The translations under genes and the position numbers were made by a program. 64,000 nt of DNA from an archaeon GW2011_AR20 (lineage in GTDB: Archaea > Nanobdellota > Nanobdellia > SCGC-AAA011-G17 > GW2011-AR20), in assembly GCA_000830315.1 (NCBI GenBank), contig CP010426.1, forward strand, positions 442,743-506,742. Direction: 5' to 3'. The notes under the pieces were generated by a model. The model was given only the letters and a program-made list of their open reading frames with translations, was not told where the DNA came from and ran no database searches. Shown here in pieces: positions 3,235 through 58,681 of this stretch; positions within the stretch are counted from its first letter, which is position 1; each line of letters opens with the position of its first letter.

Positions 3235-3748
3235 ACATGTTGAATGGTGTTTGAATAAAGCAAAGAAAGAGATTGAAGAATGCAAAAAATTGGGTAAAAG
3301 GCCAAAGCATAAGGGTTTGTTAAAAATAAATCCGAACATTGATGAAGCCAAGGGGCATCTCGCTAAAGCAGAGCATAATCTGGATGGAATTAGCAGGTTT
3401 AAGGAGATTGGATTTTCTGATTGGTCCATGTCTGCGGGATTTTATTGCATTTATCATTGTTTTCTTGCTATTGTTGCTAAATTTGGCTACGAATCGGCAA
3501 ATCAAACATGCACAATTGCTTTAATGAGATTCCTCAAAGAGAATAACAAAATTCAGCTTGATGAAAAATTTATTGAATTATTGGAATATGAAGAAATGGA
3601 AGACATTAAAGATAACAGCGTTATTGACTTAAGAGAAAATTATACCCATGGCATAAAAATTTCAGTAAAAGATGAAGCAAAAATCAATGAATTGAAAAAG
3701 ACTTGCAAAGAACTTATTGATATTACCAAAGAGATAATTTTCAAATAA
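3218..3748 (+). CDS. HEPN-domain toxin
   Basis: Overlaps the MNT stop; KAEHNL...AGFYCIYH helix; RENYTH fits Rx4H. Confidence 0.8.
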   Translation: MSQASKHVEWCLNKAKKEIEECKKLGKRPKHKGLLKINPNIDEAKGHLAKAEHNLDGISRFKEIGFSDWSMSAGFYCIYHCFLAIVAKFGYESANQTCTIALMRFLKENNKIQLDEKFIELLEYEEMEDIKDNSVIDLRENYTHGIKISVKDEAKINELKKTCKELIDITKEIIFK

Positions 3749-3834
3749 ACACGTTCATATTCAGAGTAAAAGTATTAAGGATGCCAAGTTTGATGTTTGA
3801 ATAGTTATTTAAAACTTTATTTCTTTATTAAATT

Positions 3835-4971
3835 ATGAAAATAGCATTTATATGCCCATATTATGATCCTGCAATAGATGGACCAAAGCAGGTAATTAAA
3901 GAATTAGCCACAAGACTAATAAAAGATAACCACGAAGTTCATGTTTACACTTCTGATTCTGATAAATACAAAAGAATAAAGAAAAAAGAAGAAATCGTCG
4001 ATAAAGTTCATGTTCACAGATGTTATTCATGGTTTAAAATAGCAAATTTTGTTAATTTTTTCCCAGGTGTTTTTACAAAATTATTAAAAGAAGATTTTGA
4101 TATAATTCATACCCATGTTTTTGGCCATCCTCATGTTTTTTTCGCAAGTTTTGCTAGTAAAATAAAAGGAATAAAACTGATTCACACAACACATTGCCCA
4201 TGGACTCAAGCCAATAGGTCATTATTGGGAAGAATTTTATTAAATTTGACATATTCAACATTAAGCAAATTTGCTGTAAATTTATCCGACAAGATTATAG
4301 CAATAACACCGTGGGAACTACAATTTTTTAAAAAATATGGGGTTCATAAACCAATTATGGTTCCGAATGGGGTTGATAATATCTTCTTTGAAAAAATTAA
4401 AAACAATTCATTTAAGAAAAAATTAAAAATTAAGGGAAAATTAGTCTTGTTTTTCGGAAGATTAAACATAACCAAAGGACCTGATAAATTCATTTTAGCA
4501 GCTAAGGAAATATTAAAGAAAAGAAAAGATGTTTACTTTGTTTTGGTTGGTCCAGATGAAGGCATGAAAAATAAATTAATTAAAATGATTAATCACAAAA
4601 ATATCTTATTGTTAAACCCGATTTATGACAGAAAAAAAATTGCAGAAATGTACCAAGCTTCTAATGTCTATGTTATTCCTAGTTTCAGAGAAGGACTGCC
4701 TTTAACTTTATTTGAGGCAATGGCATCTGGTTTACCGATTATAGCCTCACCTGTGAATGGAATTCCTTATGAAATGGATGAAAAGAATGGGATCTTTGTA
4801 AACTATGGAGATATACAAGGCTTAAAAGAAGCTATTTTGAAAATCCTTCATAACCCTAAATTAGCTAGAAAATATGCTTTAAACAACAAAAAAACAGCCT
4901 TAAAATACAAGTGGGATGCAATTTATCAGAAAACCTTGAAATTATATAAAGAAATTTTAACCTCTAATTAG
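3835..4971 (+). CDS. Glycosyltransferase family 4
   Basis: FFGRLNITKG; EGLPLTLFEAMASG; shares IVDKVHVHR with the GT4 at 1410. Confidence 0.9.
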   Translation: MKIAFICPYYDPAIDGPKQVIKELATRLIKDNHEVHVYTSDSDKYKRIKKKEEIVDKVHVHRCYSWFKIANFVNFFPGVFTKLLKEDFDIIHTHVFGHPHVFFASFASKIKGIKLIHTTHCPWTQANRSLLGRILLNLTYSTLSKFAVNLSDKIIAITPWELQFFKKYGVHKPIMVPNGVDNIFFEKIKNNSFKKKLKIKGKLVLFFGRLNITKGPDKFILAAKEILKKRKDVYFVLVGPDEGMKNKLIKMINHKNILLLNPIYDRKKIAEMYQASNVYVIPSFREGLPLTLFEAMASGLPIIASPVNGIPYEMDEKNGIFVNYGDIQGLKEAILKILHNPKLARKYALNNKKTALKYKWDAIYQKTLKLYKEILTSN

Positions 4972-56834: not shown

Positions 56835-56989
56835 CGCCGAGGGTGGGATTTGAACCCACAAGTCCTTGCGGACACTGGATCTTTGTGTGGTACTACAGGT
56901 CTCTGAAGTACGACTGTACTTAGCAATCTTACGCCATAATTTCAACTCAGGAATCATGTCAGCGCAGTACCAGATTGTGCCACCTCGGC
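56835..56989 (-). tRNA. tRNA-Ser(GCU) with two introns: 29/30 (56929-56959, 31 nt) and 37/38 (56881-56920, 40 nt)
   Basis: Exons 56960-56989, 56921-56928 and 56835-56880 give an 84-nt cloverleaf GCCGAGG..CTGGA TT-GCT-AA TCCAG, long variable arm, GTGGG-TTCAAAT-CCCAC, CCTCGGC-G73; both introns form BHB-like folds. Confidence 0.92.
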
Positions 56990-57628
56990 ATGATGCATAC
57001 TGCCGGTTTTTTGAAAAATTTTATACTTATTTAAATGTTTCGAGTTTTTTGGTCTGATTTCTTTAATCCATTTATGTAGCATGAATTTTCCCGCAACACA
57101 TAATTTTGCACTATTATTGCAATTCCAAATATAATTACGAAAATTGAGCTCATTTAGTAGGATAGATAGATCTTTAATTAATTTTTTGGAAGCTAAATCA
57201 AATTCAATTTTTGGATAATAGTTATTTTTGGTATGATTTTTATCAAATCTAAGGCACCCATCGGTATCGAATAATCCTCTTAAAAACGCTAATTTAATTG
57301 AATGAGATGACTTTTTCACATATTCAGGTATTTTTACGGTATAAGTTTTTGTCCCCGGTCTAAATCCATAATGAAGGAAGAATGTTGTATCCTCTTTTTT
57401 AGAAATTTGAACCCCATAACATCCGTTCTTTCCCCCGCTTCTAAATTTTGCATGAAATTTTTTGTGAAATATGGTTTGAAGTAATTGGATGACGTTGTGG
57501 TCGTAATATTCCTTTTCATTTAATGCGCCTCTTAATTCCCAAACTAAGCTTCGATTAGTTTTGTATAATGTTCCATCTCCTATATGCATGCCAATCAATT
57601 CAGCAATTTTTGAATTTATTTTTAACAT
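56954..57628 (-). CDS. Free-standing two-motif LAGLIDADG homing endonuclease; last 12 codons run through tRNA-Ser exon 1 into intron 1
   Basis: IAELIGMHIGDG and AFLRGLFDTDG; C-terminus HAEVAQSGTALT* is the tRNA 5' exon read as codons. Confidence 0.88.
   Translation of the reverse strand: MLKINSKIAELIGMHIGDGTLYKTNRSLVWELRGALNEKEYYDHNVIQLLQTIFHKKFHAKFRSGGKNGCYGVQISKKEDTTFFLHYGFRPGTKTYTVKIPEYVKKSSHSIKLAFLRGLFDTDGCLRFDKNHTKNNYYPKIEFDLASKKLIKDLSILLNELNFRNYIWNCNNSAKLCVAGKFMLHKWIKEIRPKNSKHLNKYKIFQKTGSMHHAEVAQSGTALT
57029..57041 (-). promoter_or_regulatory. BRE/TATA-like element inside the LAGLIDADG CDS, upstream of the functional tRNA-Ser
   Basis: GAAACATTTAAAT, identical to 57831-57843 upstream of the orphan 5' fragment. 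Confidence 0.55.
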
Positions 57629-57771
57629 TTTAAACTACCCTTACTTAATTGGTTGGAACTAGATAAATGATTTTATTTATATAACTCGCGGTTGTATGTC
57701 TGGCGGGAAATTTTAATTTACTAGTTAAAAATATTCTTTAAAATGATTCAAAATGAGATTCAAAAACGATC

Positions 57772-57805
57772 AATCCAGCGCAGTACCAGGTTGTGCCACC
57801 TCGGC
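57772..57805 (-). pseudogene. Orphan 5' fragment of tRNA-Ser (positions 1-34) lacking the 29/30 intron
   Basis: GCCGAGGTGGCACAACCTGGTACTGCGCTG|GATTG matches spliced exon 1 + exon 2 with one mismatch, then diverges. Confidence 0.9.
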
Positions 57806-57830
57806 ATAGAAATTATTGTAATTATAATTA

Positions 57831-57843
57831 ATTTAAATGTTTC
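57831..57843 (-). promoter_or_regulatory. BRE/TATA promoter upstream of the orphan tRNA-Ser fragment
   Basis: GAAACATTTAAAT ending 25 nt before G1. Confidence 0.6.
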
Positions 57844-57895: not shown

Positions 57896-58080
57896 AGCGG
57901 AGTAGGACAGAAGTAATTAAATTACTGTCGAATCTGGAGTGTCCGTCGAAATAGAAATCCTATTGCGTAAGGCTCATAAGACTGTTTGAGACACCCGAAA
58001 ATATAAGATTTAATCTATATTCGGGACGGTCAGTGGTTCAAAGCGATATCTAAAATTTCGAGGAAGTCCACTCTCCGCTA
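57896..58080 (+). tRNA. Initiator tRNA-Met(CAU) with five introns: 57911-57932 (15/16), 57949-57970 (29/30), 57979-57992 (37/38), 58000-58027 (44/45), 58043-58066 (59/60; alternative register 58042-58065, 58/59)
   Basis: Six exons give AGCGGAG TA GGAC AGTCTGGAGT GTCC G TCGGG CTCATAA CCCGA AGGTC AGTGG TTCAAAT CCACT CTCCGCT A (75 nt), all four stems paired; A1-U72, G11-C24 and three G-C pairs at 29-31/39-41 are initiator hallmarks. Confidence 0.92.
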
Positions 58081-58681
58081 CATTCTCATTTAAAAAGGAA
58101 TTTATTCTACTTATATTTTTTTGATTATTTGAACCAATTATTTTATCCCACTTCTTAAGCTCTCTTTTACCATTTATTTGAACCCTAATTTTACCTTTCC
58201 CTATCTGGTAGGCTCCGAATTTAAAACCATATTTATTTAAAATACTTAAAAATTGATTTTGCATTGGTGAAGGCATAACCTTCATTTCTATTCTAGGATA
58301 TCTTACGCCATTATTGTTCACAATTGATAAACAACCGTCTGTATCAAAATAACCTCTAATAACCTCCTTATCATAGCGCAATGCGGAAGATGGTATTATT
58401 GCACGATTCCACTTAGGTGATTTCATAAGACCAATTTTATTTATTAAAATATTTATTATCTTTTGATTAAATATAAATAAATCAATCGCATTCTCGTTCT
58501 TTCTCTTTTTTATTATTGGTTTGACCTTAAATAATTTTATTACCAAATTTTTAATATAATTTAAATATGCTAAATCATCAATGAAATTAAGAGTAATTTT
58601 TATTCTATTATATTTTCTAGATATATGCCCATTACCCAATAAAACTCCTATAAATTCTGCTAAATCTCTATTAATCTCCAC
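58010..58681 (-). CDS. Free-standing two-motif LAGLIDADG protein (first motif GNG), antisense-overlapping the tRNA-iMet 3' half
   Basis: LAEFIGVLLGNG and EVIRGYFDTDG; GTG start; stop at 58010-58012 lies in intron 4. Confidence 0.85.
   Translation of the reverse strand: MEINRDLAEFIGVLLGNGHISRKYNRIKITLNFIDDLAYLNYIKNLVIKLFKVKPIIKKRKNENAIDLFIFNQKIINILINKIGLMKSPKWNRAIIPSSALRYDKEVIRGYFDTDGCLSIVNNNGVRYPRIEMKVMPSPMQNQFLSILNKYGFKFGAYQIGKGKIRVQINGKRELKKWDKIIGSNNQKNISRINSFLNENVAESGLPRNFRYRFEPLTVPNID

Follow-up and report, generated by a model that had tools for sequence, protein, structure and literature searches.

How does a protein-coding gene come to stand between an ancestral tRNA promoter and the body of the tRNA gene, and does a tiny intron in that tRNA gene travel with it? 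Both questions are raised by a locus in the DPANN archaeon GW2011_AR20, whose genome is a single 829-kb contig of 31.7% G+C with 45 N; we analyzed a stretch of 64,000 nucleotides (nt) of it (the window), and the coordinates of the locus refer to the minus strand. Here the genome's only tRNA-Ser(GCU) gene is preceded by a free-standing LAGLIDADG gene, which we call HEG1, and HEG1 in turn by an orphan 5′ fragment of tRNA-Ser(GCU). Sequence comparison supports well that i) HEG1 was inserted at this site, ii) the cassette containing it is mobile, iii) the cassette is specific for tRNA-Ser(GCU), and iv) HEG1, a duplicate of tRNA exon 1, and an intron between tRNA positions 29 and 30 appeared jointly. 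The reading we favor goes further: HEG1 would be a mobile free-standing LAGLIDADG cassette specialized on tRNA-Ser(GCU), homing near the anticodon, with the intron serving as an immunity allele. We put the chances of this whole reading slightly above even (roughly 0.55).

The locus and its empty sites

Read along the minus strand, the locus consists of a promoter, a tRNA-Ser(GCU) 5′ fragment, a spacer, a LAGLIDADG gene, and a complete tRNA-Ser(GCU). A first-pass annotation, made from the sequence alone, had described the same order with an intron-less fragment and an intron-bearing tRNA, and our analysis agrees, the fragment being 35 nt long. The features are these:

57826..57840, minus: ancestral tRNA-Ser promoter resembling a B recognition element and TATA box (BRE/TATA-like), ACATTTAAAT, with a TTTAAAT box about 30 nt upstream of the fragment, as read from the sequence
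57771..57805, minus: orphan tRNA-Ser 5′ fragment GCCGAGGTGGCACAACCTGGTACTGCGCTGGATTG, 35 nt, tRNA positions 1 to about 35, by alignment
between the fragment and the LAGLIDADG open reading frame (ORF), minus: spacer, 142 nt
57694..57707, minus: motif CCCGCCAGACATAC, about 10 nt upstream of the HEG1 TATA box, resembling tRNA positions ~22-31
57669..57684, minus: candidate TATA-like promoter of the endonuclease gene (TTATATAAAT), with a like box equally far from the start codon in clade members
56954..57628, minus: HEG1, free-standing two-motif LAGLIDADG gene, 224 amino acid residues
57018..57041, minus: BRE/TATA-like sequence (GAAACATTTAAATAAGTATAAAAT) in the HEG1 3′ coding region, 29-52 nt upstream of tRNA position 1
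56835..56989, minus: tRNA-Ser(GCU), complete gene
56960..56989, minus: exon 1, 30 nt (positions 1-29), which doubles as the code for the HEG1 C-terminal tail
56929..56959, minus: intron 1, 31 nt, at 29/30, with a relaxed bulge-helix-bulge (BHB) motif; holds the ORF stop codon
56921..56928, minus: exon 2, an 8-nt micro-exon GATTGCTA with anticodon GCT
56881..56920, minus: intron 2, 40 nt, at the canonical 37/38 position
56835..56880, minus: exon 3, 46 nt, comprising the anticodon-stem 3′ strand, long variable arm, T arm, acceptor 3′ strand, and discriminator G

Some 930 bp separate the old promoter from the native 3′ part of the tRNA, a distance made up of the fragment, the spacer with its own promoter, HEG1, the new exon 1, the 29/30 intron, the micro-exon, the 37/38 intron, and the anticodon-stem 3′ strand.

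The history of the locus can be read from relatives that keep the same divergent pair of initiator tRNA and tRNA-Ser(GCU) genes, namely G002, G003, G004, and G005 of the same genus and G008 of a neighboring genus. The intergenic promoter region is 73-83% identical across these five genomes, the promoter at 57826..57840 is orthologous to that of their intact tRNA-Ser(GCU), and the orphan fragment begins where the intact tRNA begins. HEG1 is absent from the orthologous locus in all five, and none of the five tRNA-Ser(GCU) genes has a 29/30 intron:

G003 and G005: tRNA-Ser(GCU) intron-less, 84 nt
G002: canonical 12-nt intron only
G004 and G008: T-loop intron only

Because five empty sites have neither the gene nor the 29/30 intron, HEG1, the duplicated exon 1, and the intron all appeared on the branch leading to this genome; within the genus, HEG1 and the 29/30 intron occur together in this genome (G000) only. 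The first-pass annotation had claimed insertion of a LAGLIDADG gene into tRNA-Ser and had proposed a search for empty-site alleles; the search found them in G002-G005 and G008, and together with the orthologous promoter and the identical tRNA start they bear the claim out. The ancestral promoter is now predicted to drive the orphan 5′ fragment only. The initiator tRNA and tRNA-Ser(GCU) of G008 (L120, G008:C12, oriented 1640-2660) are parted by about 1 kb of additional DNA, in which ORFs lie on the opposite strand; the spot takes other insertions too.

The tRNA itself is composite. Compared with the genus type it differs at 12 of the first 43 positions and at 4 of the 41 from position 44 on, so that its first 43 positions are foreign to the genus and its last 41 are genus-type; the pattern resembles a conversion tract with its end near position 43. 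Once both introns are removed, 84 nt remain, which fold into the cloverleaf of a class II tRNA and carry the anticodon GCU. RNAfold of the sub-region gives intron 1 a central helix GCGC/GCGU and a 5′ bulge UGA, the inner helix having 7 bp and the outer helix being weak; with its predicted 4-bp central helix and two 3-nt bulges intron 1 has the defining parts of a BHB in relaxed form. Introns at 29/30 with the same ACA...GGCGTAA ends are found in L021, L022, L023, and L133.

Of its 35 positions the orphan fragment shares 34 with the spliced tRNA-Ser(GCU), for a local alignment score of 65 where 200 shuffles reached no more than 22, and likewise 34 with the intron-less tRNA-Ser(GCU) of G049. With the reconstituted tRNA it forms a 35-nt direct repeat, 787 nt upstream of the tRNA start, and it is trailed directly by a run of five T residues. 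Its match to the unspliced gene ends at position 30, and it thus crosses the 29/30 junction without an intron; this status rests on the 5 nt (GATTG) past position 30, for which we estimate a probability of about 1e-3 by chance, and is strengthened by relics that end near position 35 in L023 and L128. Those two loci carry intron-less 5′ relics upstream of the endonuclease gene (score 40 in L023; 23, marginal, in L128). The fragment was also tried as an alternative exon 1, which would make HEG1 intron-encoded, but cofolding gave a continuous 7-bp helix; as this has neither bulge nor inner helix, that reading was rejected.

HEG1 runs into the tRNA. Its ORF begins 639 nt upstream of exon 1, exon 1 and the first codon of the intron make up its last 11 sense codons, and only the last sense codon and the stop (TGA, 56956-56954) lie in intron 1, just as the first-pass annotation had the frame passing through exon 1 to a stop inside the intron. 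Since the position of the stop relative to the tRNA differs among clade loci, the overlap with exon 1 is incidental. The BRE/TATA-like GAAACATTTAAATAAGTATAAAAT at 57018..57041 has 13 nt (GAAACATTTAAAT) in common with the ancestral tRNA-Ser promoter and is likely, to judge by this match, to be the present tRNA-Ser promoter; we observe that GAAACATTTAAAT is spelled by codons of the family's conserved C-terminal motif (..SKHLNKY..). With the candidate tRNA promoter inside HEG1, removal of HEG1 could delete the promoter of the sole tRNA-Ser(GCU).

Neither ARAGORN with default settings nor Rfam (at gathering and E-value thresholds) reported any tRNA in the 64-kb window, and the tRNA parse therefore rests on a custom T-arm/acceptor-stem scanner and on parsing by hand; for annotation, this means that standard tRNA finders overlook these genes. 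When introns were allowed, ARAGORN proposed a tRNA-Trp with a single 77-nt intron, which is a mis-call of tRNA-Ser(GCU). An automated anticodon caller proved unreliable for multi-intron genes (it called this gene Tyr) and was not used: tRNA identities come from hand parses or intron-free genes, and the intron-rich ones are all hand parses. The custom scan finds about 36 tRNA genes in the genome, about two thirds of them with introns, many at non-canonical positions. The genome also has an unlinked tRNA-Ser(GGA) (genome C1:689515-689625), with introns at ~30/31 and 37/38, whose first 28 nt are identical both to the orphan fragment and to the tRNA-Ser(GGA) of G002; gene conversion may be swapping 5′ halves among the serine isoacceptors here.

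The enzyme, its clade, and the wider family

By motifs, profile, and modeled fold, HEG1 belongs to the monomeric two-motif LAGLIDADG homing endonucleases, its predicted fold being a pseudo-symmetric double alpha-beta-beta-alpha-beta-beta-alpha. Pfam LAGLIDADG_3 (PF14528) matches at E=1.1e-12 (48.4 bits, cutoff 22.5). The motifs are IGMHIGDG (D18) and LFDTDGC (D121/D123), both also present in the clade translations; in an alignment of HEG1 with nine relatives, D121, D123, and G124 are invariant and D18 is kept in 9 of the 10 sequences, being replaced by Asn in this genome's second LAGLIDADG gene. The AlphaFold model has a mean predicted local distance difference test (pLDDT) of 88.7 and a predicted template modeling score (pTM) of 0.87, with the C-terminal 13 residues (the translated tRNA exon) disordered. 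Foldseek returned as best match in the PDB I-Tsp061I (E=1.1e-10, TM-score 0.69/0.75), followed by PI-PfuI and I-DmoI, all three being archaeal LAGLIDADG enzymes encoded in introns or inteins; bI3 maturase and WhiA were also returned by the fold search. A PDB search with sequence alone gave weak matches (E ~0.02). The nearest public relatives of HEG1 are labeled Nanoarchaeota, Woesearchaeota, or Nanoarchaeia.

Close homologues (43-56% identity) are found in only 8 of 240 genomes of the order, scattered over several families, and three further public assemblies carry a clade member; the 12 known copies comprise these 8 genomes, L021-L023, and L130. Every one of the 12 lies directly upstream of tRNA-Ser(GCU), and 11 of the 12 linked tRNAs have at least one intron in the anticodon arm (positions 29-38). 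An intron in the 29-32 zone stands next to the endonuclease gene in 9 of the 11 other clade loci. Across the clade there are three intron placements in the 5′ stem zone (29/30, 30/31, and 31/32), with unrelated intron sequences; the other linked tRNAs are distributed thus:

29/30: L021, L022, L023, L128, L133
30/31: L132, L134
31/32: L129
37/38 only, none in the 29-32 zone: L131, endonuclease gene frameshifted
no intron: L130, endonuclease gene intact, anticodon stem divergent (ACGGG/CCCGU)

On translation the endonuclease genes of L130 and L133 are intact and that of L131 alone is frameshifted. L023, an independent assembly, has the same layout as our locus with nearly equal spacing (787-788 nt).

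A further likeness among clade members lies upstream of the gene. Comparison of 10 clade upstream regions reveals a motif (..GCCAGACAT.. or ..CACTGGACAT..) at a conserved position about 10-15 nt upstream of the TATA box, represented in our locus by CCCGCCAGACATAC. The slot is equivalent in L021, L022, L023, and L128-L132, despite a protein identity of only about 50% in the clade, and in L128 it holds a recognizable relic of tRNA positions 11-35. The motif may be a target-like operator or an older, decayed fragment.

Several clade loci bear marks of further events. In L021 (3640-4560) an insertion sequence (IS)-type transposase with terminal inverted repeats lies between the 3′ end of the endonuclease gene and tRNA-Ser(GCU), and its insertion truncates the endonuclease C-terminus. 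L022 has two 16-nt tRNA-Ser 5′ fragments between endonuclease gene and tRNA (3648-3806), and L023 a 13-nt tRNA-Ser 5′ fragment behind a promoter (2788-2800) and a duplicated tRNA 3′ end (TCCGGGCCGTGGCG) 54 nt past the tRNA (3779-3846). The tRNA-Ser locus of L022 and L023 seems, from these remnants, to have been hit repeatedly.

Attachment to tRNA genes is a habit of the wider family. Of 61 relatives, 50 have related LAGLIDADG ORFs, frequently several of them (0 to 8 copies per genome). A tRNA starts on the same strand within -80 to +300 nt of the ORF stop for 47 of 91 ORFs, 23 of which overlap the tRNA, and a further 8 of the 91 have a convergent tRNA; because the scanner misses tRNAs with T-loop introns, 47 of 91 is a lower bound. 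Against a baseline of 12 among the 711 long open frames of this genome, adjacency to tRNA genes is about 30-fold more frequent in the family than among ordinary genes. The adjoined tRNAs include those for His, Arg, Ile, Leu, Gly, Gln, Cys, and initiator Met, and many family ORFs end in the first 10-28 nt of intron-less tRNAs.

This genome has three LAGLIDADG genes, and every one of them touches tRNA genes. The initiator tRNA-Met (57896-58080, plus strand), divergent from the fragment, has about five introns (D-loop, 29/30, 37/38, variable loop, and T-loop), and the second LAGLIDADG gene (58010-58681, minus strand), whose first motif reads LLGNG (Asp to Asn), is antisense to it over 71 nt. Homologues about 50% identical to this second gene are convergent on the initiator tRNA in G012 and G016, as are more distant LAGLIDADG genes in G002, G027, G036, and G057. 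The third gene (~295053-295750, within genome C1:294802-295908, outside the window) lies between two multi-intron genes, tRNA-Asn(GUU) and tRNA-Ile(GAU). LAGLIDADG genes are directly upstream of tRNA-Ile(GAU) in L007, L010, L075, and L078 as well, with an additional tRNA just upstream in L010, L075, and L078, which is Asn(GUU) by hand parse in L010 only.

Target, intron, and rival explanations

We propose that the enzyme would make a double-strand break in an uninterrupted tRNA-Ser(GCU) near the anticodon, and that the break would be repaired from a cassette-bearing donor, with the conserved 3′ half of the tRNA as right homology arm and the 5′ fragment either as left homology arm or as a leftover of end-joining. 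The rebuilt gene should still give a normal tRNA, because the host splicing endonuclease removes BHB introns. Since the contiguous target would be absent from the DNA, neither copy here would be cut; with its target disrupted by the intron, the endonuclease gene would take the intron along as an immunity allele, and the intron could outlast the loss of the gene. We infer a cleavage site near the anticodon on two grounds: a target missing from all copies in this genome must span ~29-36 or the 37/38 junction, and the relics in three lineages (G000, L023, and L128) end near position 35. That the intron acts as immunity allele and as a hitch-hiker spreading with the cassette is, on our analysis, plausible.

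If intron and gene spread together, as the first-pass annotation supposed, they should co-occur, and the survey it suggested answers in part. A pattern search recovered tRNA-Ser(GCU) in 25 of 61 relatives, 16 with an intron in the 29/30 zone and 9 with none. The association with HEG1 has the predicted direction, with p somewhere between about 0.01 and 0.1 by a hand estimate that ignores phylogeny; the intron is, however, far commoner than HEG1. The supposed mechanism, in which the enzyme would cut intron-less DNA at positions 29-37 and the intron would give immunity, is thus supported in part only. What stands of it is the joint arrival on this branch and the intron in 11 of 12 linked tRNAs; what tells against it is how common the intron is without the gene, and the intron-less L130.

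The observations that weigh against the reading we favor are best set out together. i) When genes of the genus type are added, the 29/30 intron is present in about 15 of 29 tRNA-Ser(GCU) genes without HEG1, and at roughly half this leaves the co-occurrence weak. ii) G027 has the same synteny and both introns, but no HEG1. iii) No endonuclease relics or 5′ fragments were found within 1.4 kb upstream of 23 HEG1-less tRNA-Ser(GCU) genes. iv) In L130 an intact clade gene lies beside an intron-less tRNA-Ser, though one with a divergent anticodon stem. v) In the family at large, at least 14 of the 47 adjoined tRNAs are intron-less, and with introns in about 70% of them, against about 65% of this genome's tRNAs, there is no enrichment. 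vi) The fragment and the new exon 1 share one non-genus type, so that the fragment may have been brought in by the cassette and not be a scar that arose in this lineage. vii) Alignment of upstream regions shows no recognizable fragment at most clade loci.

Several of these points sit comfortably with the rival that survives best, in which a tRNA-Ser-specific homing element has its target outside positions 29-37, for example at the junction of the 5′ end with its flank or in the D-arm, so that the insertion alone, or differences in bases, would confer immunity and the intron is a bystander, co-converted from the donor lineage. An intron that is frequent without the endonuclease gene, an intact gene beside the intron-less tRNA of L130, and adjoined tRNAs not enriched in introns are all in its favor, and the many family ORFs that end in the first 10-28 nt of intron-less tRNAs point to the 5′ boundary as the usual docking point. 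But a target lying between the promoter and position 35 would survive in the orphan fragment, and one within positions 1-29 would survive in both copies; the relics of three lineages end near position 35, not at the 5′ boundary; and the three intron placements of the clade-linked tRNAs all fall in the 29-32 zone. We consider this rival improbable, yet the one to be taken most seriously.

The LAGLIDADG fold has been re-used for other roles, as in maturases and WhiA, and HEG1 might be a domesticated DNA- or RNA-binding protein that serves the adjacent tRNA gene as a transcription regulator or processing helper. Conservation of the gene-tRNA pairing across families, the mostly intact clade ORFs, the tRNA-like motif conserved beside the gene's TATA box, and the appearance of bI3 maturase and WhiA among the fold matches would all suit such a role. 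A gene with a resident function is hard to reconcile with so patchy a distribution (8 of 240 genomes, and missing from all four same-genus genomes with a functional tRNA-Ser), with one frameshifted and one IS-disrupted copy, with copy numbers from 0 to 8 per genome, or with conservation of both catalytic Asp residues, and we regard domestication as quite unlikely.

No better placed is the idea that another mobile element made the insertion, for instance through a site-specific recombinase supplied in trans that used the tRNA 5′ part as attachment site, with the LAGLIDADG gene as cargo. The architecture, the tRNA 5′ part in direct repeat with a reconstituted tRNA that has an extra intron, is that of a published case (PMC3293823). 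Yet there is no integrase or recombinase in or beside the insert, where the sole ORF of at least 60 residues with a family match is the LAGLIDADG gene, and the same minimal unit recurs in 12 genomes, with the LAGLIDADG gene alone common to all; we think this explanation very unlikely. An assembly artifact or a chance match of the 35-nt fragment, which a metagenome-type assembly with 45 N might invite, is barely credible given a match score far above shuffles, a fragment placed at the ancestral tRNA start behind an orthologous promoter, and the same layout in L023.

The origin of non-canonical archaeal tRNA introns, and of fragmented and split tRNA genes, is a long-standing open question, and published proposals for such introns invoke intron transposition or integrase-bearing elements. 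Our locus suggests, as far as its sequence can, one way in which odd tRNA introns and fragments could arise. More speculatively, and we doubt it more than we believe it, tRNA-specific LAGLIDADG cassettes might quite generally drive, at the level of DNA, the disruption of tRNA genes in ultrasmall archaea: each clade would home into one tRNA species, the conserved halves of the tRNA serving it as homology arms that can be carried along, the 5′ fragment would be no scar but an operator or a left arm still in use, the essential target would be healed by a replacement 5′ part, and non-canonical BHB introns would be seeded as immunity alleles that outlive the endonuclease. If true, this would explain the abundant odd tRNA introns and the orphan tRNA fragments (split-tRNA precursors) of these lineages. 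The case is compact enough for the laboratory, with one 224-residue enzyme and one 84-nt target, and nature supplies the alleles: empty ones without the 29/30 intron in the same genus, and ones with the intron and without the endonuclease gene elsewhere in the order.

Comparison with known systems

Our literature searches found no description of LAGLIDADG genes adjoining tRNA genes in DPANN archaea, but each feature of the HEG1 locus has a counterpart in some other system. In phage T4, SegB is reportedly a free-standing homing endonuclease of the GIY-YIG family in a tRNA gene cluster, with intron-less homing; like HEG1, it is a free-standing endonuclease gene among tRNA genes, and unlike HEG1, it is a GIY-YIG enzyme of a phage genome, with no duplicated tRNA part and no introns.

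In fold, size, and monomeric two-motif form, HEG1 resembles I-DmoI, I-Tsp061I, and I-PorI, the enzymes of archaeal rRNA BHB introns, and the I-DmoI type also has in common with our locus an archaeal host and a BHB intron in a stable-RNA gene. There, the ORF lies inside the intron that it mobilizes, whereas the HEG1 ORF is free-standing and upstream; the HEG1 locus differs further in its 31-nt ORF-less mini-intron, in its tRNA gene, and in the duplicated exon 1 that restores the gene.

Collaborative homing in phages, as described for F-CphI with the ORF-less psbA intron of cyanophage S-PM2 and for T4 mobE with I-TevIII (PMC6083498, PMC2790892), offers the closer parallel in logic. Both there and at the HEG1 locus, a free-standing endonuclease gene adjoins a gene whose ORF-less intron splits the presumed target, an arrangement in which gene and intron can spread together. 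In the phage systems the introns are self-splicing group I introns, the genes encode proteins, the setting is phage crosses, and cleavage has been demonstrated; at the HEG1 locus the intron is a protein-spliced BHB intron, the gene is a cellular tRNA gene, a 5′ fragment is left over, and cleavage is predicted only.

The closest published architecture is that of the Caldiarchaeum subterraneum tRNA-Thr(GGU) locus, for which intron gain by way of a mobile element has been proposed (Sugahara et al. 2012, PMC3293823) and which likewise has a 5′ fragment, a mobile insert, and a complete tRNA with an extra non-canonical intron. Insertions of the Caldiarchaeum and pNOB8 type share with ours the direct repeat of tRNA sequence and the reconstituted tRNA, but not the integrase gene, which our locus lacks. 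The Caldiarchaeum insert is 1.8 kb long, encodes a putative DNA recombinase, and was explained by an attP/attB integration model (PMC3293823); the HEG1 insert, at about 0.8 kb and with a LAGLIDADG endonuclease only, would imply homing by break and repair instead.

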